Shown one piece after another: positions 7,945 through 61,625 of a stretch of 64,000 nt of DNA. Source of the DNA: Escherichia coli. GTDB lineage: Bacteria > Pseudomonadota > Gammaproteobacteria > Enterobacterales > Enterobacteriaceae. How positions within the stretch are numbered: the stretch's first letter is position 1; each line of letters begins with the position of its first letter. The position numbers were made by a program, and so were the translations under genes. The notes under the pieces were generated by a model. That model saw only the letters and a program-made list of their open reading frames with translations. It made no database searches and was not told the origin of the DNA. The stretch is taken from the NCBI RefSeq assembly GCF_011045215.1, contig NZ_CP049201.1; one strand, given 5' to 3'.

Positions 7945-9011
7945 TCTTTCTTCAGCCGTATCCAGGCGCGCGTGCCAGAAGTCTCTTGCCGGTTTTGCAG
8001 GAAAAACTGCCCGTGATGCAACTGTGTAATGCGGCTGACAATACTTAACCCCAGACCAATCCCGCCATAACGGCTGTCCATACGTACAAACGCTTTACTC
8101 AACTCCCCGCATTTACTCTCATCAATACCCGGTCCTTCATCTTCAACGGCCATGACGGCTCCGCCATCTTCTTGCAGCTTAATCATAATGTTGCTGCCTT
8201 GCGGGCTGTAACGATGGGCATTTTCTACCAGATTTCGCAATAACATCCGCAGCAGGGTTGCATCACCCTGAACGGTGATGTCGGCGGCGCTCTCTGGCAA
8301 TAGCAGGGTTTGCTGGCGCTGGTCGAGCATAGTACTGAGTTCGTCATACGAGGGGAGAATGACATCTTCCAGCAGTTTTACATGTTGATAATTACCGGAA
8401 GAAAATGACTGTCCGGCACGCGCCAGTTGCAGCAGCTGGGAGACGCTCTCCATCATCTGATCAAGCCGTGCCACTAACGGTGCTACATCAATGTGATGCG
8501 TTTTCGCCAGCAGTTCCAGATGCAAACGCACCCCCGCCAGTGGCGTTCGCAGTTCGTGCGCGACGTCAGCGGTAAATAACCTTTCGTTATCCAGCGTGCT
8601 GGTCAGGCGACTGACCAGATCGTTCAACGCCGAAACCACCGCTTCGATTTCGAGGGTGGCGCTGTGAATGGCAATGGGCGTTAAGTTGTCGGCGGTGCGC
8701 GCTTCCAGCTCTTTTTGCAGCTCCGCCAGCGGGCGGGTGATGCGGCGTACCGCCTGATAGCAGATAAATAGCGTCAGGCTGACCATAAAGACGCCGGGGA
8801 CAATCAGGCTGGCGACCGCCTCGCGGATCTCACGCATGATGTGGCGATCGTTGTTGCGATTGTCGCGTAGCGCCTGCTCAAACAGCTGAATCTGCTCGGT
8901 ACTTTCATGCCATAGCCAGAAGACGCTGATCAGCTCAAACACCAACAAAATGGCCCCGATGGTCAATATCAGCCGTTGGCGCAGCGATATTGGTCGGCGC
9001 AGAAAACGCAT
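7920..9011 (-). CDS. basS: Sensor histidine kinase BasS (PmrB)
   Basis: Recognised BasS sequence with H-box HELRTPL and ATPase G-boxes; start set at MRFLRR (363 aa), upstream ATG at 9020 is an alternative. Confidence 0.93.
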   Translation of the reverse strand: MRFLRRPISLRQRLILTIGAILLVFELISVFWLWHESTEQIQLFEQALRDNRNNDRHIMREIREAVASLIVPGVFMVSLTLFICYQAVRRITRPLAELQKELEARTADNLTPIAIHSATLEIEAVVSALNDLVSRLTSTLDNERLFTADVAHELRTPLAGVRLHLELLAKTHHIDVAPLVARLDQMMESVSQLLQLARAGQSFSSGNYQHVKLLEDVILPSYDELSTMLDQRQQTLLLPESAADITVQGDATLLRMLLRNLVENAHRYSPQGSNIMIKLQEDGGAVMAVEDEGPGIDESKCGELSKAFVRMDSRYGGIGLGLSIVSRITQLHHGQFFLQNRQETSGTRAWIRLKKDQYVANQI

Positions 9012-42760: not shown

Positions 42761-44128
42761 ATGGCTGAAATGTCTGTTCTCTGTGCATACGAAGCAGAGC
42801 AGGCCGTTCTGGGCGGTCTGATGCTGGAGAATGAACGCTGGGATGAAGTGGTGCTGATGCTGAGTCCTGACGATTTTTATGTGGCTCCGCACCGGGTCAT
42901 TTTTCGTGCCATGTCTGAACTGGCGGTGAATGGCCAGCCTCTGGACCTGATTACACTGTCAGAACTCCTGGAACATCAGGGCAGGCTGGACGTACTGGGC
43001 GGTTTTGCTTATCTGGCAGAGCTCAGCAAGAACACACCTTCTGCGGCCAACATCATGGCCTATGCAGGCATTGTGGTGGAGAAAAGCGTTCTGCGTCAGT
43101 TACAGGCCACCGGAAACACCCTGATTGCTGATGTGGCGGCACCGAACGCCACATCACGGGACGTGCTGGATACTGCAGAGCGGCGTCTGTTTGCTCTTGC
43201 GCAGAACAGGACGCTCCGGGAGCGCACGGAAGCCTCTCTTTCATCCGCGCTCGATACCGTTCTGCAGCAACTGGAAAGTGTGCTCGGTTCCGGCGGTGTG
43301 ACCGGTACCCCCACGGGATTTGACTGTCTGGATGAAATGACCTGTGGCCTGCAGCCAGGTGACCTGGTCCTGCTGGCTGCCCGTCCGTCAATGGGGAAAA
43401 CCTCTCTGGCACTGTCCATGTGTCTCAGTGCCGCCCTGCGGCGGACGGAAGAGAGCGTTCTGGTATTCAGCATCGAGATGCCGAAGGAGCAACTGATTCT
43501 GCGCATGCTTTCCATGCTGGGACGTGTGGAACTGAATCATCTGCGCAGTGGCAACATGGATGATGAGGACTGGACGAGGGTGTCATCTGCGGTTGGCATG
43601 GCGCTGGGTGACGGAGGCATGGATGCGCTGGGTGAGCGCCTGATAATTGATGACTGCAGCCAGCAGACACCGTCATCGCTGCGTGCCAGTGCCCGCCGTT
43701 ATACCCGCCTGTACGGTAAACCCGCTCTGATTATGGTGGATTATCTGCAGCTGATTCGTGCGCCGGAGCTGGAGAACCGCACCCAGGAAATTGCTGAAAT
43801 TTCCCGTTCCCTGAAAGCGCTGGGGAAGGAGCTGGGATGTCCGGTGCTGGCCCTCTCCCAGCTTAATCGTCAGGTGGAACAGCGTGCAGATAAACGCCCC
43901 AATAACGGTGACCTGCGTGATTCCGGGGCACTGGAGCAGGATGCTGACCTGATTATGTTTATTTACCGCGACGAGGTCTATAACCCCGATTCACTGGCAA
44001 AGGGGGAGGCTGAAATTATTGTCAGCAAGCAGCGTCAGGGGCCCACAGGCACGGTGCGGGTCAGGTTCGACGGTCGTTACACACTGTTTACGCCCTCTGA
44101 AAATGACGGACAGGGAGGATATGCGTGA
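42761..44128 (+). CDS. DnaB-family replicative helicase (island-encoded)
   Basis: N-terminal DnaB-like domain and RecA-like domain with Walker A AARPSMGKTSLAL; start ATG 42761 preceded by gggggagggg; track ORF start 42596 is an upstream extension. Confidence 0.85.
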   Translation: MAEMSVLCAYEAEQAVLGGLMLENERWDEVVLMLSPDDFYVAPHRVIFRAMSELAVNGQPLDLITLSELLEHQGRLDVLGGFAYLAELSKNTPSAANIMAYAGIVVEKSVLRQLQATGNTLIADVAAPNATSRDVLDTAERRLFALAQNRTLRERTEASLSSALDTVLQQLESVLGSGGVTGTPTGFDCLDEMTCGLQPGDLVLLAARPSMGKTSLALSMCLSAALRRTEESVLVFSIEMPKEQLILRMLSMLGRVELNHLRSGNMDDEDWTRVSSAVGMALGDGGMDALGERLIIDDCSQQTPSSLRASARRYTRLYGKPALIMVDYLQLIRAPELENRTQEIAEISRSLKALGKELGCPVLALSQLNRQVEQRADKRPNNGDLRDSGALEQDADLIMFIYRDEVYNPDSLAKGEAEIIVSKQRQGPTGTVRVRFDGRYTLFTPSENDGQGGYA

Positions 44129-45804
44129 TGGCACACAAACCACTGAATCTCGGGGCTGCCATTATGCAGCCCGGTCGTCAGGCCAGTGCCGCCGGTAATG
44201 TGGTGGCGCTGGGGGAAACCCCCATGATTCTGACGCTGGACCAGTTGCGTCCGAATCCGGATAACCCGCGCACCACGCGCAATCCGCGTTATGACGACAT
44301 CAAAAACTCCATTCACGCCCGCGGGCTGGATACAGTGCCCAAAGTCACCCGTATGCCGGACAGTGAGCCGGATGTGTATATCTTCAGTGACGGGGGAAAC
44401 ACCCGTTACCAGATACTGACGGAACTCTGGAAAGAAACGGGGGACCCGCGTTTTTACCGTATTCATGTGCTGTTCAAACCCTGGCCGGGACGGCTTCAGT
44501 GTGTGATTGGTCATCTGGCGGAAAATGAAGTTCGCGGTGAACTGACCTTTATTGAGAAGGCACAGGGCATTCACAAGGCAAGACAAATTCATGAGGAACA
44601 ACTCGGCAGAAAAGTTTCCCTTCGTGAACTGGCGGATTTGTTAACCCATGAAGGGTTGCCGGTACACAACTCCACGATCAGCAGAATGGAGGATGCCCTG
44701 AAATATCTGTACCCCTGGATCCCCGACCTGATGGAGTCAGGACTGGGGCGACATCAGATTACGGCACTGCTGGCACTTCGTCAGGACGCAGAGCGTGTCT
44801 GGGGACAGTTTGCGCTGACGTCCGGCACGGACGCGGAATTTGACCGCGTGTTCGGGGAAAGCTGCCGGAAGTTTAATTCGCCGGAGCTGTGGTCACTGGA
44901 GATGTTTCGGGATGAGCTGATTGGAGATTTGTTGCAGGCGCTGCCACATCCCTCCCTGGACTATGACCGGTGGCTGTTGGAGCTGGATCCGAAAGAGCGG
45001 AACCGTCGTCACCATTTTGGTGAGCCGGAACCGGTGGTGGTACCGCCGTCAGTCCGTGACAGTGGCACAGGGCAGTCCGGTGCACCGGTATCCCGTATCC
45101 GGCCGGAGGTACCGGAAATCTCTGCCCCTGATACTGAGCCCGGACAGCATGATGTTGCCCGACCGGAGAACGCTGTTTCTGACACAGGCCTCACTGAAAA
45201 ATGCGGGTTTCCTTCCCCGGAGGAGACTGCAGACAGAGCGCCTTCTTCTGCCGGGAAAGTCCGGCGTTCAGAGATGCAGCCGGATATGTACGGCGGTGAG
45301 CCGGTCTTCAGCGGTGATGCTGTGGACGCGGGGATTGCCGGGGCCGCTGTGCCATCCGTTATGACCGGCGATACAGTGCCGTCCGGAACACCTGATGTAC
45401 TTCCCGTGTCTGTGACGCATTTTGCTGAAGGACGGGATGATATCGAGCATCTGCAGAATGAGGCCTTCCGGCTGGCATGGGAACTGGCTGAATCTGCCGG
45501 CTGTGCTGAAGAAATTGCCATGGACAGAGAAAGTGACCTGTCGGCTGGTTTCGGGACTGCAGAGGAGAAATGTTCGCCGGTGACGGCATTTCTGATGGGG
45601 CTGACCGGCGATGCGCCGCTGACAGTGTCTCCCGTCAGTCTGACAGACCTGCTGACAGGCGGCAGTGCGCCGGAAGCATGGCCACTGCTGGATGATGAAC
45701 ATGCCGTGAAGCTGCTGCGTCTTCTGAGTGTGCTGCGCCGTCTGCGCGCCCTGCAGCGCAGTGTGTTACCCGAAGATGATGAGGAGGATGAAAGTGATGA
45801 GTGA
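44125..45804 (+). CDS. ParB-like nuclease/partition domain protein (559 aa)
   Basis: N-terminal ParB-like region (LTLDQLRPNPDNPR...), long acidic C-terminus; start overlaps the helicase stop. Confidence 0.7.
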   Translation: MMAHKPLNLGAAIMQPGRQASAAGNVVALGETPMILTLDQLRPNPDNPRTTRNPRYDDIKNSIHARGLDTVPKVTRMPDSEPDVYIFSDGGNTRYQILTELWKETGDPRFYRIHVLFKPWPGRLQCVIGHLAENEVRGELTFIEKAQGIHKARQIHEEQLGRKVSLRELADLLTHEGLPVHNSTISRMEDALKYLYPWIPDLMESGLGRHQITALLALRQDAERVWGQFALTSGTDAEFDRVFGESCRKFNSPELWSLEMFRDELIGDLLQALPHPSLDYDRWLLELDPKERNRRHHFGEPEPVVVPPSVRDSGTGQSGAPVSRIRPEVPEISAPDTEPGQHDVARPENAVSDTGLTEKCGFPSPEETADRAPSSAGKVRRSEMQPDMYGGEPVFSGDAVDAGIAGAAVPSVMTGDTVPSGTPDVLPVSVTHFAEGRDDIEHLQNEAFRLAWELAESAGCAEEIAMDRESDLSAGFGTAEEKCSPVTAFLMGLTGDAPLTVSPVSLTDLLTGGSAPEAWPLLDDEHAVKLLRLLSVLRRLRALQRSVLPEDDEEDESDE

Positions 45805-46522
45805 TATGCCGCATCAGGAGCGTCTGGTCAGACGGGTCAGGAAACTGCTGGAGCTGAGTCGCAATAACAGTAATGCCCATGAGGCCGGGCTGGCGCTTGC
45901 AAGGGCGCAACAGCTGATGGCGAAACACGGTATCACGGAGCAGGATGCCGGACTTTCTTCGGTGCAGACGTCTTCATCACAGGGGGCACCTTCTGAGGCT
46001 GAAAAAGTTCCGGCGTGGATGTTTCGTCTGGTCATGGTGGTGTCACAGACATTTGGCTGCAGGGCGTATTACGACTGGCGGTTGATGCCCGGTGGCAGGT
46101 ATCGCCGGTGTGTGACGTTTTACGGTTTCAGTGAACGTCCTCAGGTGGCGGCTTATGCGTTTGATGTTCTGTGCCGCCAGTTGAGGGACGCAACGGATGC
46201 GTATCTCCGTACACAGAGCCGGCGGCTGAAACTGAGCACCCGCCGCGCCCGGGCCGCTCAGTTCCGCGATGGCTGGGTTCAGGGCGTTCGTCAGGTGGTG
46301 ATGCCATTCAGTGTGACAGAAGAGGAAAGCCGGCTGATGCGCCTCTGGCTGGAGCAGCAGGAGATGGAGACGGTGGACCCCCGGGAGGTGAAAGCCTGTC
46401 GCGGCGGTGACCAGGCCCGCTGGCAGGGGTATGAGGCCGGGAAAAATGCCTTACTGCATCATGGTGTGGGGGGAACAGCCCGCCAGATGGTGCCGGGGCT
46501 GATGATACGGGAGGCGTCATGA
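45797..46522 (+). CDS. Hypothetical ICE-associated protein (~241 aa)
   Basis: ORF overlapping the parB-like stop; start ATG 45797 or 45806; no domain recognised with confidence. Confidence 0.5.
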   Translation: MSDMPHQERLVRRVRKLLELSRNNSNAHEAGLALARAQQLMAKHGITEQDAGLSSVQTSSSQGAPSEAEKVPAWMFRLVMVVSQTFGCRAYYDWRLMPGGRYRRCVTFYGFSERPQVAAYAFDVLCRQLRDATDAYLRTQSRRLKLSTRRARAAQFRDGWVQGVRQVVMPFSVTEEESRLMRLWLEQQEMETVDPREVKACRGGDQARWQGYEAGKNALLHHGVGGTARQMVPGLMIREAS

Positions 46523-47097
46523 ATAACAGCTTATCTCAGGCAACCAACGGTCTGCTGATGCAACTGGTGATGGACCTCAGGAGCGGCTATCTGCGTCGCT
46601 GTGAATCTCTGGGACTGGCCCGGGAGGAAATGCAGATGCTGCAGGGACTGACCATTGAGGAAATCCATTACCTGTCTAACTCGGAAGTGTCGGTTATCCG
46701 GCTGGACATTAATCATGAAAACCTGCTGCGAATGCTGCAGCAGGCCCGGACGGAGCAGAAACGTCTGCAGCGCATTGACCGTGCCCTGGCGCTGGGTGGT
46801 TCCATTGAGCTGATGGCGTTTTACTTTGGACTTTCCAGTGTGGATGTTGCGGCGCGCCGGCGCATTGCCGGTATTGATGTTCGTCCGGGACGTGGTGTCA
46901 CGCTGAGCGATGAGGAAAGTGCAGAGCTGTGGCGGTTATGGCAGAAGGCGGGCATCACGGATGTGGAGAGTGCGGACGGACTGGATGTCATGATGCTGGC
47001 TGCGGAGCAGATGAATATCCCGCTGACGGCTATCTGGCATGCAGTAAGGGGTTGGTGCGCTGACCGGCAGACGGAGCCGGTAAGGAATGCGTCATGA
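46519..47097 (+). CDS. Hypothetical ICE-associated protein (192 aa)
   Basis: ORF translationally coupled (4-nt overlap) to the previous gene. Confidence 0.5.
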   Translation: MNNSLSQATNGLLMQLVMDLRSGYLRRCESLGLAREEMQMLQGLTIEEIHYLSNSEVSVIRLDINHENLLRMLQQARTEQKRLQRIDRALALGGSIELMAFYFGLSSVDVAARRRIAGIDVRPGRGVTLSDEESAELWRLWQKAGITDVESADGLDVMMLAAEQMNIPLTAIWHAVRGWCADRQTEPVRNAS

Positions 47098-48237: not shown

Positions 48238-49482
48238 ATGGCGTTACCTGCGGAAAGCCTGATTGCGTATACCCTGGAAAAAATGAAGCACCGTATGACC
48301 ACCGGAGCCCGGAAGGAGGAGGGGCGAATACGCAGCGGACTGTTGTTCACCGGCAATGTGCACGATGCCATTCCGCGTCGTCTGTTGCTGGATACGCGTC
48401 TTTCACCGCTGGACAAGATGGCATGGATGATGATCCGGCTGTATGCGCAGAATAATGAGGGGGCCATTTTTCCTACTTACGATGAACTGCAACTGCAGCT
48501 GGCATCGCCGGGAAAGGGAAAAGCTTCCAGAGAAACCGTCAGCCGGGTATTGCTGATGTTGCGGATCACGGGCTGGCTGAGCCTGTGTAAACGGGTACGT
48601 GATGATAAAGGCCGGGTTCGGGGAAACATTTACGCCCAGCATGACGAGCCCCTGACGTTCTGCGATGCAGAGGCGATGGATCCGCGTTATCTGGATATAG
48701 TGGCAGAAGCCTGTATGAGCCGGAACCGGACCATCAGTCAGACGGCACGGGATATTCTTTGTGAAATAAAAAATGATCCGGGAATGCGTCACTATCACAG
48801 CCATATCAGTCAGCTGGAAGCCCGGATAGGAAGTGCCCAGACACCGGGGCAGATGGCTGCCCGTCAGCGGGTGACAGAGGACAGAATGCGGCCGGGTTCG
48901 GAAACCGAACCAGTGGTGAGAACACTGAGTTCGGCACCGGAAAAGCTGAGTTCGGAAACCGAACCGGGTAAAAAAATGGGGCAAAAAAGACAGAGTTCGG
49001 ATCCCGAACCATCAGGAAAATCAGCAGGTTATCACAGAGTCCGGGAACCGAACCATTACGTACGTAATATCACACACAGTGTGATTAAAAACACGTACGT
49101 ACTGCCGGCGTCGCTGACGGGGCAAATCAGGGAGGAAGATGCCATCATGCTGACTAGTCAGTTGCAGGCGTTGCCGGAAGCGCTGGCACAGGGGGTGCTG
49201 GAAAGCCTGTCAGGGATGCTGGGCAGTCAGTCACTGCAGAACCCGGTGGGCTGGCTGCTTGCAGTGCTGAAGCGTGCCCGGGAGGGAAATTTTTATCCAC
49301 CGAAACAGAAACAGCGCGTCGCTGCATCAGCCACCATACAGGCGGGAGCGGGAGGGCGCACCACTTCGCAGCCTGTTGTCACCCGGAAACGTACAGAACC
49401 CATTTCAGCAGAACGTCTGAGTGGCATTGTGGCAGGACTACGGGCCTCCCTTCGCAACCGTCCTGCGATGAGAGCCCGGTGA
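48238..49482 (+). CDS. Island replication-protein-like gene (resembles the SPI-7 STY4528-type family)
   Basis: ATG 48238 preceded by gaggtga; ~414 aa; immediately followed by the iteron array; family assignment from memory, unverified. Confidence 0.6.
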   Translation: MALPAESLIAYTLEKMKHRMTTGARKEEGRIRSGLLFTGNVHDAIPRRLLLDTRLSPLDKMAWMMIRLYAQNNEGAIFPTYDELQLQLASPGKGKASRETVSRVLLMLRITGWLSLCKRVRDDKGRVRGNIYAQHDEPLTFCDAEAMDPRYLDIVAEACMSRNRTISQTARDILCEIKNDPGMRHYHSHISQLEARIGSAQTPGQMAARQRVTEDRMRPGSETEPVVRTLSSAPEKLSSETEPGKKMGQKRQSSDPEPSGKSAGYHRVREPNHYVRNITHSVIKNTYVLPASLTGQIREEDAIMLTSQLQALPEALAQGVLESLSGMLGSQSLQNPVGWLLAVLKRAREGNFYPPKQKQRVAASATIQAGAGGRTTSQPVVTRKRTEPISAERLSGIVAGLRASLRNRPAMRAR

Positions 49483-49506
49483 TGGCGTTGTGATTCACGT
49501 TCACAG

Positions 49507-50076
49507 AGAGCAAAAATCAACCAGTGCTGCCAGTGGCAGCATAGAGCAAAAATTAGCCAGTGCTGCTCGGGGCAGCATAGAGCAAAAATTAGCCAGTGCT
49601 GCCCGGGGCAGCATAGAGCAAAAATCAGCCAGTGCTGCCCGGGGCAGCATAGAGCAAAAATCAGCCAGTGCTGCCCGGAGCAGCATAGAGCAAAAATTAG
49701 CCAGTGCTGCCCGGGGCAGCATAGAGCAAAAATTAAGCAGTGCTGCCCGGGGCAGCATAGAGCAAAAATTAGCCAGTGCTGCCCGGGGCAGCATAGAGCA
49801 AAAATCAGCCAGTGCTGCCCGGGGCAGCATAGAGCAAAAATTAAGCAGTGCTGCCCGGGGCAGCATAGAGCAAAAATTAGCCAGTGCTGCCCGGGGCAGC
49901 ATAGAGCAAAAATCAGCCAGTGCTGCCCGGGGCAGCATAGAGCAAAAATCAGCCAGTACTGCCCGGAGCAGCATAGAGGAAAAATTAGTCAGTGCTGCCC
50001 GGGGCAGCATAGAGCAAAAATTAGGCAGTGCAGCCCGGGACAGCATAGAGTGAAAATTAGCCAGTGCTGCCAGTGT
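49507..50076. repeat. Tandem array of ~15 direct 36-bp repeats, each containing the 17-bp perfect palindrome tgctgcccggggcagca (iteron-like; candidate origin or centromere)
   Basis: Unit agagcaaaaat(t/c)agccagtgctgcccggggcagcat repeated head-to-tail with few substitutions; first and last units degenerate. Confidence 0.9.
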
Positions 50077-50354
50077 CACCAAAGAACAAAAATTATGCTG
50101 CGTCAGCAGCATGGAAGGCGGCGGCACTGAATATCCTGAAACATCTGACGGTAAACCGCCGAAGCCCGGCGTCAGCCGGAAACGTCCTGACAGGATGCAG
50201 TGCTCTCCCCGGCCCTGCCAGACCCTGTTTGTTTCAGGAAAAAGCCTGTGTCACATAAAAGAACCGGAGTACAGAGGTAAAACAGAATACTTGCCGCCGT
50301 TTTTTCCGTCAGTATACTTTTTCGTGCTGAAATTCTGGCTAAGGAAAGATTTTT

Positions 50355-51101
50355 ATGACAAATATTAAAATTCTGGCATTCAGTGTGCTGGCAGCCTTTT
50401 CAGTGGGTGCCGCGCATGCGGAAAGTACGCTGACAGTGGGGGCCGGGGTCGGCGTTGTTGAACAATCCTATAAAGGGTATGACGCAAAGGCTTACCTGAT
50501 CCCTGCGGTTTCTTATGACAGTGATTATTTCTGGTTCCGGGGGCTGGGCGGGGGCTTTTATCTGTGGAATGACAGTGCGGATACGCTTTCTGTGACGGCA
50601 TACTGGGCACCGATGTATTTTAAACCGGATGACAGTAATGACCATCAGTTACGTCTGCTGGATGAGCGTAAAAGCACACTGATGGCGGGGATATCCTGGT
50701 CTCATAATACGCCATATGGTTTCCTGCGCACGGGGCTTGCTGCGGATGTACTGGATAACAGTAATGGTGTTGTTGGTGATGTGGCGTGGTTATACCGTTA
50801 TGTGAATGGTGGATTCACCCTGACACCGGGGATTGGTGTGGAGTGGAGCAGCCAGAAACAGAACGACTATTATTATGGCGTATCGCGTCGTGAATCTGCG
50901 CGCAGCGGTCTGGAGCGGTATAAAGCGGATAATGGCTGGTCACCTTACCTTGAAATCAGTGCAAATTACACCTTTGCCGGCAACTGGGGGATCTACGGAA
51001 CCGCACGTTACAGCCGCTTATCTGATGAAGTTAAAAACTCTCCCATGGTGGATAAGTCATGGGATGGACTGTTTTCCACCGGGATCACTTATCGTTTCTG
51101 A
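50355..51101 (+). CDS. MipA/OmpV-family outer membrane protein
   Basis: Signal peptide MTNIKILAFSVLAAFSVGAAHA, beta-barrel-like alternating pattern, C-terminal ITYRF; promoter-like ttgccg-N16-tatact upstream. Confidence 0.7.
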   Translation: MTNIKILAFSVLAAFSVGAAHAESTLTVGAGVGVVEQSYKGYDAKAYLIPAVSYDSDYFWFRGLGGGFYLWNDSADTLSVTAYWAPMYFKPDDSNDHQLRLLDERKSTLMAGISWSHNTPYGFLRTGLAADVLDNSNGVVGDVAWLYRYVNGGFTLTPGIGVEWSSQKQNDYYYGVSRRESARSGLERYKADNGWSPYLEISANYTFAGNWGIYGTARYSRLSDEVKNSPMVDKSWDGLFSTGITYRF

Positions 51102-51265: not shown

Positions 51266-51964
51266 ATGAGTGAAGATAAACTGAACCAGAAAGATGTCCG
51301 GGCCGGCGCATTGCAGTCCTCGCTGTCCATTCTGTTACATACCCATTATGCCATTCGTCTTTGGGAAGGACGTTTACCCGGACGAAAGCCCGGGAATATG
51401 CCCTGGATTATGAGTATGCCGCAGGCAATAAAACGTGCCGGGGGGATTTACCGGGATTCCCTGGCGGATAATCCCTATGCCGATGAAGCGATGTGGAAGG
51501 TGGAAAATGCAATTAATGCTGCCAGTGAAAAAGTACATGCTCTGGTTGGCTGGCTGGAGCAGGTTCTGTGTGCCGTGCCGGCGAATATTACCATGACTGA
51601 TGTTGTATCCCGTTCTCCATTAAATATTGGGGTTTACAGTAGTTCTCCGCTGGGGTATCGCTGTGTCTGGCTGCTTGTGGGATATGATCAGATGGCTCTG
51701 AAAGCGTTTCAGGCATCCCACTTTGGCCTGATTTCCCGGCAGAAACGGGACGAGTTACTCTCACATGGCGGGTATCTTATCCGGAAAATTTACGGCATTT
51801 TAAGGGGTTATTATGCCATCCCTGTCACACGACAGGATCTTGAAGAAAAAACACCGGCGGGAGAACAGGCGATGGCACGCCTGGGGCTCCCTGATGCTGA
51901 GATTATGAATGGGCAGTTGCGATCATCATTTTCTCCTCCGCTGAAGAAAAAGAAGAATAAATAG
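51266..51964 (+). CDS. Hypothetical ICE-associated protein (232 aa)
   Basis: ORF directly upstream of topB. Confidence 0.55.
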   Translation: MSEDKLNQKDVRAGALQSSLSILLHTHYAIRLWEGRLPGRKPGNMPWIMSMPQAIKRAGGIYRDSLADNPYADEAMWKVENAINAASEKVHALVGWLEQVLCAVPANITMTDVVSRSPLNIGVYSSSPLGYRCVWLLVGYDQMALKAFQASHFGLISRQKRDELLSHGGYLIRKIYGILRGYYAIPVTRQDLEEKTPAGEQAMARLGLPDAEIMNGQLRSSFSPPLKKKKNK

Positions 51965-54220: not shown

Positions 54221-54248
54221 GGCGCTGTATTTGCAGCGCCGTTTTTTA
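54221..54248 (+). terminator. Rho-independent terminator-like hairpin
   Basis: ggcgctg-tatttg-cagcgcc followed by gtttttt. Confidence 0.6.
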
Positions 54249-54614
54249 TTCCGGGTTGACTTTCCATGGATGTGTTTTAAAAATAACCGGGCTTATTTGC
54301 TGCATCTGCAGCCAGCCAATGTTTCAGCAGTCTGAGAGAAACGCCTTCGGGTGACTGCCAGCCAACGTTTCACCGGCCTGAGAGAAACACCTTCGGGTGG
54401 CCGGAATATCCTCGTAGCCTGAAAGAGGATGCCTGTGGGCGGTACATCCGTTTAACCTCTGGAAACGGATATCACTGTTCAGTGATTGAGGTCTTTTTAC
54501 TTCTCAGACAGCCGGAATTCAGCTGATCCGGCATCCCCGACGGGAACATTCACTTCCGTCAGGGATGGTGATGTTCTCCGTCATCACATTTTTTAACTCC
54601 ATGGAGAAATCATC

Positions 54615-60945: not shown

Positions 60946-61454
60946 TGACGGTAAAACGGATGTTTATGCTTTTATTCAGAGTGGTGATTGTCTGGCCGGC
61001 CATGCTGACGGGATGCCTGATGATGCTGTATTTCGCAGAGGTTGCCAGCGGTGGTGTGACAGGGCTGGCGCAGCGTTATGAGGCGGAGTCTGCCCGCTGG
61101 CGTGATGCGCCGGAAGGGGCGGTGATGATGCTCCGGTGTCCGTCGCGTCCCTTTGTGGTGCCGGTAACAACCGGGGAGTGGCGTGCACTGTCCGCCACTG
61201 ATGCAGAATGCCTCCGGGCACCGCGCTCTTTCAGGCAGGCTGCGGAGGCAGATTTTCAGTCACTGCACATACTGGCGCTGACACTGCTGCTGGCATCCGT
61301 GGTTCTGGAAGGCATTTCGGCCGGCATGTTGCGCCGGAAAACCGCATCCGTACCGGTATCACCACACTGTGGATGTGGCCGGGGCCGTGGTGCGGTTGCA
61401 CACTGGCCTGAGCGTGACAGTGATGCGACATCACAGAAGGGAGGCCCGGTATGA
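60942..61454 (+). CDS. ICE integral membrane protein
   Basis: Hydrophobic N-terminus MMTVKRMFMLLFRVVIVWPAMLTGCLMMLYF; coupled to the previous gene. Confidence 0.5.
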   Translation: MMTVKRMFMLLFRVVIVWPAMLTGCLMMLYFAEVASGGVTGLAQRYEAESARWRDAPEGAVMMLRCPSRPFVVPVTTGEWRALSATDAECLRAPRSFRQAAEADFQSLHILALTLLLASVVLEGISAGMLRRKTASVPVSPHCGCGRGRGAVAHWPERDSDATSQKGGPV

Positions 61455-61469
61455 CCGTTTCACTGCTGG

Positions 61470-61625
61470 CCCGTGTGCAGGCAAATGTTCCTTGCAAAAT
61501 GGCATCTGAATCGATCGCAGTTTGGCATTCGAATCGATCATGATTTGGCATCCATCTCCGATCACAGTTTGGCATCACAATCGATCACGATTTGGCATAC
61601 TTCCGATCATTGATTGGAATTCGCC
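61470..61625. repeat. IS21-family terminal region with multiple direct repeats (putative transposase binding sites)
   Basis: Five copies of tttggcat-N8-10-gatc(a/g) immediately upstream of istA. Confidence 0.7.

Follow-up and report, generated by a model that had tools for sequence, protein, structure and literature searches.

Head-to-tail 36-bp units lying just downstream of an initiator-like gene form an untranslated, non-coding cis element of the maintenance module of an ICE of the SPI-7/pKLC102/ICEHin1056 family, which is inserted beside cadC. By sequence comparison, this array is the enterobacterial 36-bp version of a repeat locus carried by all SPI-7/pKLC102/ICEHin1056-type conjugative islands, and is homologous to the repeats of pKLC102, SGI-4, ICEHin1056 and a Pantoea plasmid. 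The array belongs to an already described kind of repeat that is labelled putative oriV in relatives, but the evidence fits a centromere-like docking array better than a putative replication origin. Our reading, which we regard as plausible though short of probable, is that it is a sopC/parS-like multi-dimer docking array, the candidate binder probably being the ParB-family protein of the island.

The island and its maintenance genes

The array was analysed in a 64-kb stretch of Escherichia coli DNA, referred to here as the window. A preliminary description of this DNA had placed ParA, ParB and DnaB genes upstream of the array, and a ParA-like ATPase, a ParB-family protein and a DnaB-type helicase were indeed identified there. 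The genes relevant to the array are the following.

38422-39315, plus strand: ParA-like Walker ATPase, encoded beside the chromosomal cadC at the island's left end
42596-44128, plus strand: replicative DNA helicase of SPI-7-type islands (DnaB-PI; NF040583, 689.6 bits)
44125-45804, plus strand: ParB-family protein of the ICE_PFGI_1_parB type (TIGR03764), homologue of ICEclc BisD
46519-47097, plus strand: DUF2857 protein, homologue of ICEclc BisC, the FlhC-like partner of BisD (PMC7423338)
48238-49482, plus strand: STY4528-family initiator-like 'replication protein', just upstream of the array
50355-51101, plus strand: MipA/OmpV-family cargo gene, between the array and the next backbone gene
51266-51964, plus strand: PFL_4669-family protein (TIGR03761; Pfam AcaB, PF08900), first gene of the topB-ssb operon

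The profile match of the ParA-like ATPase lies below curated cut-offs, and the syntenic counterpart of its gene is annotated ParA in two related loci (L001 and L045). In the ParB-family protein, which has a ParB/KorB-like fold, a ParB/Srx N-domain and a helix-turn-helix are joined by a long disordered linker to a C-terminal domain. The STY4528-family protein consists of an N-terminal winged helix of the DnaD/RepA_N/RctB kind, a disordered middle (~220-285) and a C-terminal helical domain. For these two proteins, a PDB sequence search returned nothing useful and a Pfam search found no domain. The island also encodes its own replication genes, namely DnaB, topoisomerase III and SSB. The array occupies a slot common to the family, flanked upstream by the STY4528-family gene and downstream by the PFL_4669-family gene, to which mipA has been added in the window; this cargo gene is missing from most relatives outside Escherichia.

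Anatomy of the array

Positions 49507-50095 are recovered by Tandem Repeats Finder (TRF) as a single array with a period of 36, 16.4 copies, 92% matches, no indels and a score of 968. Its parts, together with the palindrome at its right edge, are as follows.

49507-50082, no strand: array units 1-16, head-to-tail, 36 bp each (from TRF, a per-unit table and a pattern search against shuffles)
50083-50095, no strand: partial 17th unit, consisting of the A-box only (AGAACAAAAATTA)
50095-50112, minus strand: terminal palindrome ATGCTGC-GTCA-GCAGCAT, terminator-like, with a T-run next on the minus strand

Each unit begins with an A-rich box, AGAGCAAAAAT[T/C]AGCCAG, and continues with a 17-bp dyad, TGCTGCCC-G-GGGCAGCA. 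The preliminary description had spoken of about 15 tandem 36-bp iterons directly after a replication-protein-like gene, each with a perfect 17-bp palindrome. The period, the unit sequence (in TRF and in the in-register units) and the position, 24 nucleotides past the stop codon of the 48238-49482 gene, are all borne out, but the count rises to 16 units and a partial 17th. The dyad is also 17 bp long, but is better described as 8+1+8 than as 7+3+7, and is perfect in only 11 of the 16 units of the per-unit table, with one or two arm mismatches in units 2, 5, 13, 15 and 16. The dyad of unit 1 differs from the others and yet is perfect (TGCTGCCA-G-TGGCAGCA), a degenerate version of the same variant being found in unit 16.

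The pattern TGCTGCCNNNGGCAGCA, with at most two mismatches, has 16 matches in the array and two weak ones elsewhere, against a shuffle expectation of 0.43, and none of 100 shuffles reached 18 matches. Dyads of the array family were not found elsewhere in the 64-kb window. A scan for intrinsic terminators and promoters found none inside the units, the right-edge hairpin on the minus strand being the only terminator-like feature. A known RNA family was rejected, as no Rfam family matched the array and the sole match was a sub-threshold miRNA (E=0.84), and a CRISPR array was rejected because the units run head-to-tail with no spacers.

Non-coding nature of the array

Two long open reading frames run across the array, one on each strand.

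49490-50053, plus strand: artefactual repeat ORF of 187 aa, with 6 synonymous and 23 non-synonymous inter-unit differences
49501-50127, minus strand: artefactual repeat ORF of 208 aa, with 4 synonymous and 25 non-synonymous inter-unit differences

Both frames stay open for the sole reason that the unit is a whole number of codons (36 bp, 12 codons) and can be read without a stop in four of its six frames. Unrelated non-repeat spacers of 72-250 bp part the corresponding sites of relatives, so that any reading frame is broken there. The preliminary description had called the ORFs on both strands artefactual, which agrees with the codon counts and the 12-codon period; translation as a repeat protein, the possibility it had raised against its own interpretation, was checked and is contradicted both by these counts and by the spacers.

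Annotation and assembly of the array have their own difficulties. The PGAP pipeline calls the equivalent of the minus-strand ORF 'saposin' or 'hypothetical protein' in E. coli relatives, and the practical point is that the array induces false calls of this kind in annotation pipelines. Short-read assemblies also seem to break off or collapse at the array: several contigs end near the initiator-like gene, and in one contig whose initiator protein is 100% identical the array is about four units shorter.

Homologous arrays in relatives

In many relatives, the STY4528-family gene is followed by units of an A-box and a TG-dyad, or by dyads alone. E. coli relatives carry 14 and 26 copies, and array lengths among complete E. 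coli genomes differ by multiples of 36. SGI-4 of Salmonella has 11.4 units of 36 bp (AAAAAGTGTACGG-TGTTGGCA-C-TGCCAGCA), ICEHin1056 of Haemophilus influenzae has 4.6 units of 36 bp, a 90-kb Pantoea plasmid has three copies in a 36-bp array, Erwinia has two to seven copies, and Mixta, Brenneria, Pectobacterium and Xenorhabdus have one to five. The pKLC102 element of Pseudomonas aeruginosa has a 57-bp unit in about 15-16 copies (15.2 computed), with six different perfect dyads coexisting in the one array, and PFGI-1 has four repeats of 46 bp (PMC2647930). The remark in the preliminary description that related elements have repeats of other unit lengths is therefore upheld, the comparison with the oriV regions of relatives yielding homologous arrays of 36, 46 and 57 bp in 1 to 26 copies.

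The position of the sites is also conserved. The first site lies 16-54 bp past the initiator gene in nearly all relatives. The start codon of the PFL_4669-family gene follows the last dyad of relatives at a distance of about 110-150 bp, in most cases 120-125 bp, a spacing that is kept even with 1-3.6 kb of cargo between the first and last dyads. In Pantoea and E. ludwigii, four dyads with exact 36-bp spacing are instead found inside the parB reading frame, with none after the initiator gene and one further identical dyad inside a distant gene. Dyad-like sites 2-4 kb upstream of dnaB in three loci (L023, L026 and L038) belong to a chromosomal gene that is not part of the island; they were set aside as chance matches.

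The repeats of pKLC102 and PFGI-1 share with the array the slot between the STY4528-family and PFL_4669-family genes and companion dyads, GTTCGG(N3)CCGAAC, inside the upstream gene; they are likewise head-to-tail units, each with a perfect TG...CA dyad (in pKLC102, GTGGTGCCA-C-TGGCACCAC). They differ from it in unit length, in the inner bases of the dyad and in the mipA cargo gene that follows the array here, and pKLC102 is without the A-rich box that is present here and in ICEHin1056. In ICEHin1056 and SGI-4 the period is likewise 36 bp and the A-box again precedes the dyad; the A-box of ICEHin1056, ACAAAAATTAACCA, is almost the same as the GCAAAAATTAGCCA found here, although the ICEHin1056 dyad is AT-rich (TGTAAAG-GGG-CTTTACA, 7+3+7) and both elements have fewer units than the window.

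Homologous repeats of the pKLC102/PFGI-1 type are termed putative oriV (PMC2647930, PMC2258188), a label that in the available text of these papers rests on sequence features. The 2007 and 2009 papers that use the label cite the 2004 description of pKLC102, and an experimental test of it was not found in the available text of either.

Symmetry of the dyads

Symmetry statistics were collected for 85 distinct in-register sites. Changes in both arms occur in 115 cells, as compared with 49 +/- 5 in shuffles (0 of 500), and the arm covariation score is 0.381 versus 0.127, with slid controls reaching at most 0.105. The innermost pair of the dyad is complementary in 84 of the 85 sites, even though single-strand folding leaves this pair open, as it could not pair across a 1-nucleotide loop. 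Conservation of a pair that is open in the hairpin points to duplex sites for protein dimers, rather than to hairpins selected for stability.

Origin hallmarks and a second dyad set

An AT-rich unwinding region, a DnaA-box cluster and an IHF site were sought beside the array and none was found. GC content is 0.48-0.59 across the array, and the mipA start codon falls within the only stretch where AT reaches 75% or more. DnaA-like boxes with one mismatch occur once inside the STY4528-family gene and once in mipA, and no match to the IHF consensus was found. In addition, the winged helix of the initiator, including its DNA-reading helix and wing, is invariant across all dyad classes, whereas the array dyads vary between and within elements.

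A set of dyads that does not vary is found inside the initiator gene itself, next to a palindrome cluster.

48892-49053, no strand: companion cis element of 4-5 GTTCGGnnnCCGAAC dyads, inside the STY4528-family gene
49054-49104, no strand: palindrome cluster ATTACGTACGTAAT / ATCACACACAGTGTGAT / TAAAAACACGTACGTAC, underlying the invariant protein motif PNHYVR..THSV.K

The GTTCGGnnnCCGAAC dyads are located at 48895, 48928 (degenerate), 48949, 48994 and 49038, the last copy being in a different reading frame, and they lie in the part of the gene that codes for the disordered linker. Among 46 sequences (45 loci and the window), 130 sites of this type are inside STY4528 genes as against 15 outside, of which 11 are weak and four are in the disrupted gene of locus L042. 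The companion palindrome of PFGI-1, (CT)GAGTTCGGAATCCGAACTC(AG) (PMC2647930), is present just upstream of the repeats in 4-5 copies in the window.

This arrangement is reminiscent of lambda ori and RepA_N origins, in that 4-5 repeated dyads are found in the disordered-linker part of the gene, and the STY4528-family protein has a weak PHROG match to 'replication initiation O-like'. Origins inside initiator genes are known from phage lambda, where ori lies in gene O, and from RepA_N plasmids such as pSK41 and pAD1. The initiator-like protein differs from both in having no sequence-level membership and no Pfam match, and an origin role for the companion element is putative. The initiator's own origin sites would more probably be these invariant dyads than those of the array.

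A proposed docking array for a ParB-family protein

With one symmetric 17-bp site and one asymmetric A-rich box per unit, the array has room for about 16 protein dimers next to one another. It would offer the ParB-family protein encoded 3.7 kb upstream a place to dock or load that tolerates changes of position and, together with this protein and the ParA-like ATPase, would keep hold of the island in its excised circular form and segregate it; it might also set expression of the adjacent operon.

For comparison, the unit of sopC in the F plasmid is 43 bp long, is repeated in tandem and contains a 16-bp inverted repeat to which SopB binds, and the copy number of sopC and parS clusters is variable and largely dispensable. 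The array is similar in its head-to-tail units with one dyad each, suited to a dimeric ParB-type protein, in its clustered sites and variable copy number, and in the presence of ParA- and ParB-family genes on the same element; the outer bases TGTT...AACA of the dyad also recall chromosomal parS (TGTTNCACGTGNAACA). It differs in having no adjacent parAB operon, in the odd length of its 17-bp dyad, and in that the ParB-family protein is a BisD homologue. Odd-length palindromes of 13 bp (OB) are bound by KorB of RK2, which combines partition with transcriptional control and whose fold is matched by the ParB-family protein, but KorB sites are single and dispersed at promoters, whereas those of the window are all in one array.

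Several features count in favour of docking, namely a family-wide element whose symmetry is kept through change, a copy number free to range from 1 to 26, a flexible position (as evidenced by the dyads inside parB in Pantoea and E. ludwigii), a ParA-like ATPase on the island, and an initiator that is a poor match to the array dyads and has dyads of its own, in a region where origin hallmarks are absent. Counted against it are the distance of the array from parB (3.7 kb) and parA (about 10 kb), with no par operon adjoining, and the role of the ICEclc homologue BisD as a subunit of the transcription activator BisDC (PMC7423338). The promoter motif proposed for ICEclc BisDC was compared with the array dyads and rejected as a relative, the two showing no resemblance. 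The presence of several perfect dyads per array, six in the case of pKLC102, is hard to explain for a sequence-reading dimer, and the constant position of the first site, 16-54 bp past the initiator gene, and the literature's placing of the repeats in oriV also count against docking.

The association of a recognition-helix residue of the ParB-family protein with dyad class is weak and confounded by phylogeny, with locus L026 as an exception, and column-wise mutual information with dyad class, which is a hint only, reaches similar maxima in ParB, DUF2857 and DnaB. In Xenorhabdus, whole-protein comparison of ParB, STY4528, AcaB-like, DUF2857, DnaB, topoisomerase III and STY4534 is uninformative because the elements are mosaic and none of these proteins clusters by site class. 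The anatomy of the array, its homology and conserved slot, its lack of coding, the covariation of the dyad arms and the folds of the proteins are shown by the analysis; that the ParB-family protein is what binds the dyads, and that the function served is partition or loading, is what we infer.

Alternative readings

The main alternative is that the array consists of origin iterons or copy-control sites whose dyads are bound by the STY4528-family initiator, via its C-terminal part or as a dimer, either as a component of oriV, which is what has been published for pKLC102 and PFGI-1, or by titrating or 'handcuffing' the initiator like P1 incA and F incC. The array does begin 24 nucleotides after a gene encoding an initiator-like fold, with a DnaD/RepA_N/RctB-like winged helix and weak phage-initiator matches; the first-site position is kept in nearly all relatives, the island has its own DnaB, topoisomerase III and SSB, some relatives are recorded as circular plasmids (pKLC102, and Pantoea plasmids of 72-208 kb), and homologous repeats carry the putative oriV label. 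However, classical iteron origins, such as those of R6K, RK2, P1 and F oriS, have direct repeats that are 17-22 bp long, are not palindromic and recur about every two helical turns, whereas the units here are 17-bp dyads at 36-bp spacing with no adjoining AT-rich unwinding element or host-factor sites. A classical iteron origin is weakened by this absence of origin hallmarks, by the invariant winged helix, and by the second, invariant dyad set, which is a better partner for an invariant domain; the location of the Pantoea and E. ludwigii array within parB and a copy number of 1 to 26 also speak against it. Moreover, measured replication of the excised ICEclc element depended on the relaxase and oriT1 (PMC6561031). 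We consider the iteron reading unlikely, if by no means negligible. The preliminary description had offered the array as a replication origin or a centromere, and what stands is a non-coding cis element of the maintenance module, the iterons being the less supported half of that proposal because of the dyads spaced 36 bp apart, the missing hallmarks, the invariant winged helix, the separate dyads internal to the initiator gene, and the array dyads that one lineage has in parB. An improbable reading is that the array is a local operator or enhancer for the promoter of PFL_4669-topB-STY4534-ssb, with the AcaB-like PFL_4669 or a BisDC-like ParB/DUF2857 pair as regulator, and with array expansion tuning the threshold through regulator titration. 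The near-constant spacing of the last dyad from the PFL_4669-family start in relatives, despite the cargo, is suggestive of such a role, as is the match of PFL_4669 to Pfam AcaB, described in the literature as a ribbon-helix-helix-like activator. The downstream operon may, from gene order, match the bistable inrR-ssb operon of ICEclc in position, and the ICEclc alpA-bisDC transcript ends after orf96323 (PMC7423338). In the window and in E. coli relatives, however, mipA lies between the array and the PFL_4669 gene, which has no dyad left upstream of it; the dyad occurs nowhere else in the island, which excludes it as the box of an activator serving a whole regulon; ICEclc has a different promoter motif; 16-26 tandem operators would be unusual; and the Pantoea sites sit in coding sequence.

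A two-part system, quite improbable in our estimation, would join lambda-O-like origin dyads in the initiator gene to an array that serves as a loading or titration platform for a ParB-fold subunit belonging to a master activator of the BisDC type. Here, the copy number of the array would set the amount of activator sequestered, and island segregation would thereby be coupled to the bistable transfer switch, while the perfect symmetry seen in so many different dyads of one array would be due to hairpin-templated (template-switch) correction and not to the reading of specific bases. It is very unlikely that the array acts instead through single-stranded DNA hairpins on the transferred or displaced strand, as priming, single-strand-origin or structure-specific protein sites. 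All variable arm positions co-vary and several perfect palindromes exist per array, which suggests pairing rather than base reading; each unit can form a 7-bp hairpin (-7.6 kcal/mol), and ssb and topoisomerase III genes lie downstream. Yet the innermost pair is complementary where a hairpin could not use it, the stems are short, the fold of a single unit is only marginally better than that of shuffled sequence (z = -1.8 to -2.2), there is no Rfam family, no strand-specific G-T tolerance is evident in the array dyads, and the conserved A-box is left unexplained. Scarcely credible is a neutral minisatellite, selfish and slippage-prone, or a gene for the 187- or 208-aa repeat protein, for which the VNTR-like copy variation and the ORFs called over the array by annotation pipelines could be cited: unit architecture and position are kept from Haemophilus to Pseudomonas with changes compensated, and the repeat protein was rejected on the mostly non-synonymous inter-unit differences in the open frames and on the unrelated spacers of relatives.

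Significance

Islands of the SPI-7, PAPI-1/pKLC102, ICEHin1056, SGI-4 and ICEclc type spread genes for virulence, metal resistance and antibiotic resistance. Their repeat locus consists of two different dyad sets, a distinction that turns the 'putative oriV' label into separable questions of binding and function. One lies within the initiator gene, where its copies fall in two reading frames, and the arrayed set behaves like a movable, copy-variable platform for protein dimers.

Genetic context of the array

The island begins after chromosomal cadB and cadC, and the genes surrounding the repeat array are arranged as follows.

34437-37675, cadB and cadC, chromosomal genes
38422-39315, ParA-like ATPase gene
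42596-44128, SPI-7-type DnaB gene
44125-45804, gene for a ParB-family protein of the ICE_PFGI_1 type
between the ParB-family and STY4528-family genes, genes for DUF2786 and DUF2857 proteins
48238-49482, STY4528-family 'pathogenicity island replication protein' gene (initiator-like gene)
49507-50095, repeat array
50355-51101, mipA
51266-51964, PFL_4669-family (Pfam AcaB) protein gene
downstream of the PFL_4669-family gene, genes for topoisomerase III, STY4534 and SSB

Among complete E. coli genomes, 92 of 5426 carry the closest matches, which are SPI-7-family islands with identities up to 92%, and 100%-identical counterparts of the window proteins occur in assembly GCA_009901295.1 and 'Enterobacteriaceae bacterium TzEc077'. 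At its junction with cadB and cadC (34437-38422) the island has no integrase, whereas the E. coli relative L001 carries one before parA, and no tRNA genes were detected across the whole window. The mipA product is a MipA/OmpV-family outer-membrane protein, cargo that is found in E. coli relatives and missing from most other genera; in Xenorhabdus, other cargo occupies the space between the first and last dyad.

Further repeats are present in the window. A 21-bp tandem duplication (ATGAGAACATCGCAACATATG twice, 42127-42168) lies inside ORF 41676-42413, upstream of dnaB, and two 46-bp direct repeats (GCCAGCCAAYGTTTCASCRGYCTGAGAGAAACRCCTTCGGGTGRC, 54311-54399) lie between the topoisomerase III and STY4534 genes, preceded by a terminator-like hairpin at ~54222-54250. 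Five ~23-bp direct repeats, TTTGGCAT-N6-ATCGATCAYRA, each with a GATC site, lie in the conjugation module (61500-61623), in the intergenic space that separates an ORF ending at 61454 from its downstream neighbour; given their classical-iteron-like spacing, these represent a possible oriT or regulatory site.

A conserved, non-coding repeat

Tandem Repeats Finder identifies one strong array, at 49507-50095, with a period of 36, 16.4 copies, 92% matches and zero indels. The consensus unit, AGAGCAAAAATTAGCCAG-TGCTGCCC-G-GGGCAGCA-T, consists of an A-rich box (A-box) followed by a 17-bp dyad of two 8-bp arms and one central base. The preliminary description was correct as to a 36-bp tandem array, but the ~15 units that it reported, each with a perfect palindrome, come to 16 in register (49507-50082), with a partial 17th after them, and the dyad is perfect in 11 of the 16. 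The dyad of unit 1, TGCTGCCA-G-TGGCAGCA, is also perfectly symmetric; relative to the inner units it has two changes that compensate each other. The last unit carries a degenerate copy of this variant. The dyad pattern has 16 matches in the array and essentially none in the rest of the 64 kb, against a chance expectation of 0.43.

Because 36 bp correspond to 12 codons and four of the six frames of the unit are stop-free, long ORFs run along both strands, and PGAP annotates the corresponding arrays of E. coli and SGI-4 as 'saposin' or 'hypothetical protein'. Differences between units are overwhelmingly non-synonymous, with 6 synonymous versus 23 non-synonymous in the plus-strand open frame and 4 versus 25 in the minus-strand frame, and in relatives the same sites are parted by unrelated DNA (72, 105-108, 173 or 250 bp). 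These observations rule out a protein-coding gene, including the translated repeat protein that had been considered, and confirm that the repeat ORFs are artefactual. What lies at 49507-50095 is a genuine cis element that is conserved and does not code for protein.

Homologous arrays in related elements

Forty loci of other species were gathered via the STY4528-family protein, to which loci from E. coli, SGI-4, pKLC102, ICEHin1056 and one Pantoea plasmid were added. The same type of site is found 3' of the initiator-like gene in nearly all of them.

Arrays in relatives: element, unit length, copies
E. coli: 36 bp, x14.4 and x26.5
SGI-4: 36 bp, x11.4
Erwinia psidii: 36 bp, x7.3
Mixta: x5
90-kb Pantoea plasmid: x3.1
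ICEHin1056: 36 bp, x4.6; A-box ACAAAAATTAACCA, nearly identical to that of the window
Xenorhabdus: 108-bp repeat (3 x 36)
pKLC102: 57 bp, x15.2

The pKLC102 array is presumably the '16 x 57-bp direct repeats' of the pKLC102 oriV. Islands with iteron-like oriVs include pKLC102, SPI-7 and PAPI (PMC2258188), and in PFGI-1 the repeats number four, are 46 bp long, contain a 21-bp inverted repeat apiece and directly precede PFL_4669 (PMC2647930); in these two papers the 'oriV' label is based on sequence features only. The preliminary description, which stated that iterated origin repeats of different unit length are reported for related elements, is right as regards pKLC102 (57 bp) and PFGI-1 (46 bp; PMC2647930). 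The window array is homologous to the repeats labelled 'putative oriV' in islands of the pKLC102 type.

Among the E. coli matches, coordinate offsets from the query are close to multiples of 36 bp (about -13 to +10 units), indicating a copy-number-variable locus. In the draft contig L043 (WWMP01000025.1), the STY4528-family protein is 100% identical and the intergenic region is 144 bp (four units) shorter than that of the window, and several draft contigs of other species stop just past the STY4528-family gene. Short-read assemblies are probably collapsed or broken by the array.

Symmetry of the dyads

The outer positions of the dyad are near-constant across elements (TG.TG....n....CA.CA), and positions 3, 6, 7 and 8 vary both between elements and within arrays. 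Observed half-sites include TGTTGGCA, TGCTGGCA, TGTTGCCA, TGCTGCCC, TGTTGCCC, TGTTGACA, TGCTGTCA, TGTTGCAC, TGTTGCAG and TGTTGGAG, with six different half-sites in pKLC102 alone. Across 85 distinct in-register sites, collected with no symmetry filter, 88% of cells are paired (74% when shuffled), and 115 cells are altered on both arms as compared to 49 +/- 5 in shuffled sites, the observed count being reached in 0 of 500 shuffles. The covariation score is 0.381, versus 0.127 for shuffled sites and at most 0.105 for slid controls.

A single-strand fold of the array unit forms only a 7-bp stem and a 3-nt loop, leaving the innermost pair open, yet this pair is complementary in 84 of the 85 sites, 16 double changes among them. 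Hairpin stability as such therefore fails to explain the symmetry, and single-strand hairpin signals are a very improbable function for the array. Rather, the pattern argues that the twofold symmetry of the duplex is preserved, as would be expected for a dimeric protein, although restoration by template-switch correction may be an alternative cause.

A second cis element within the initiator-like gene

Inside the STY4528-family gene, four to five copies of GTTCGGnnnCCGAAC are present at 48892-49053, and more palindromes (ATTACGTACGTAAT, ATCACACACAGTGTGAT) cluster 3' of these internal dyads, in the region to 49104. The internal dyad corresponds to the '23-bp palindrome CTGAGTTCGGAATCCGAACTCAGT' listed for PFGI-1 as the initial half of its putative oriV (PMC2647930). 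Four copies are found in pKLC102, and the dyads are conserved from Pseudomonas to Escherichia with a spacing of 54/45/44 bp. In 46 sequences (45 loci and the window), 130 such sites fall inside STY4528-family genes, as opposed to 15 outside them in ~695 kb, of which 11 are weak and 4 come from locus L042, where the gene is disrupted. The last internal dyad is always in a different reading frame, coding for an invariant VR(K/E)PN; the internal dyads are thus conserved at the DNA level.

The AF2 model of the STY4528-family protein (mean pLDDT 76.7) has three parts: a winged helix at the N terminus, modelled with confidence; a disordered linker, residues 220-285, that coincides exactly with the part encoded by the internal dyads; and a helical domain at the C terminus. 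For lambda O and the RepA_N initiators, the origin repeats lie within the gene of the initiator itself. By analogy, the internal dyads, rather than the array, are the more likely initiator sites. Together with the palindrome cluster, likewise in the linker-coding part (48892-49104), they are candidates for the place where the initiator binds and the true origin lies.

Possible binders and function of the array

The main rival interpretation, in keeping with published descriptions, is that the array represents initiator iterons or a copy-control element. The recognition helix and wing of the initiator (ASRETVSRVLLMLRITGWLS...RVRGNIYAQHDEP), however, are essentially invariant in all enterobacterial elements whatever the dyad class, a 15-bp variant included, which would suit the invariant internal dyads and fit the variable array poorly. 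GC content across the array is 0.48-0.59, no DnaA-box cluster or IHF consensus is found beside it, and the sole AT-rich 40-mer beside it spans the start of mipA. For excised ICEclc, replication as measured needs the relaxase and oriT1, with a possible additional mechanism mentioned by the authors (PMC6561031). Initiator iterons or copy control are thus considered unlikely. A local operator is less probable still. In its favour, the distance from the last dyad to the PFL_4669-family gene downstream of it varies little among relatives (110-150 bp), which is suggestive of a role at a local promoter; the window has mipA inserted between the two. Within this island the dyad is confined to the array, so it is no regulon-wide box.

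For the ParB-family protein, the four residues opening the predicted recognition helix are variable (HNST in the window), and residue 182, one of the four, shows the strongest association of all columns with dyad position 3. In Xenorhabdus, for instance, elements with TGTTG dyads have SASH, those with TGCTG have SDGH or SDSH, and those with the 15-bp form have SRSY, one exception apart. This weak association with dyad class is only a hint; other proteins score similarly, and whole-protein comparisons reveal mosaicism. In Pantoea/E. ludwigii, the initiator gene directly adjoins its downstream neighbour and no dyad is found 3' of it; four dyads, GTGTTGCCA(G/C)TGGCAACAC, at exact 36-bp spacing instead lie in-frame within the disordered linker of parB (8539-8647 in locus L016, likewise in L017 and L024); one further identical dyad lies inside a distant conjugation-module ORF (L016 19072). 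Movement of the site into coding sequence with its spacing kept is centromere- or loading-site-like rather than origin-like.

In ICEclc, bisD is the gene that used to be called parB, bisC encodes the DUF2857 protein, and the two products act jointly as a heteromeric master activator of transfer competence (PMC7423338). The window proteins of 44125-45804 and 46519-47097 are homologues of BisD and BisC, respectively, with a DUF2786 gene between their genes. Since BisD is an activator subunit, the ParB-family protein may be mainly a regulator. The motif proposed for BisDC promoters (PMC9286271 S3 Fig) is unrelated to the arrayed dyads.

From these comparisons we infer both binder and function of the array, and tentatively favour a tandem platform of duplex dimer sites, similar to sopC/parS, on which dimers of, probably, the ParB-family protein would dock, whereas the initiator would use the dyads inside its own gene.
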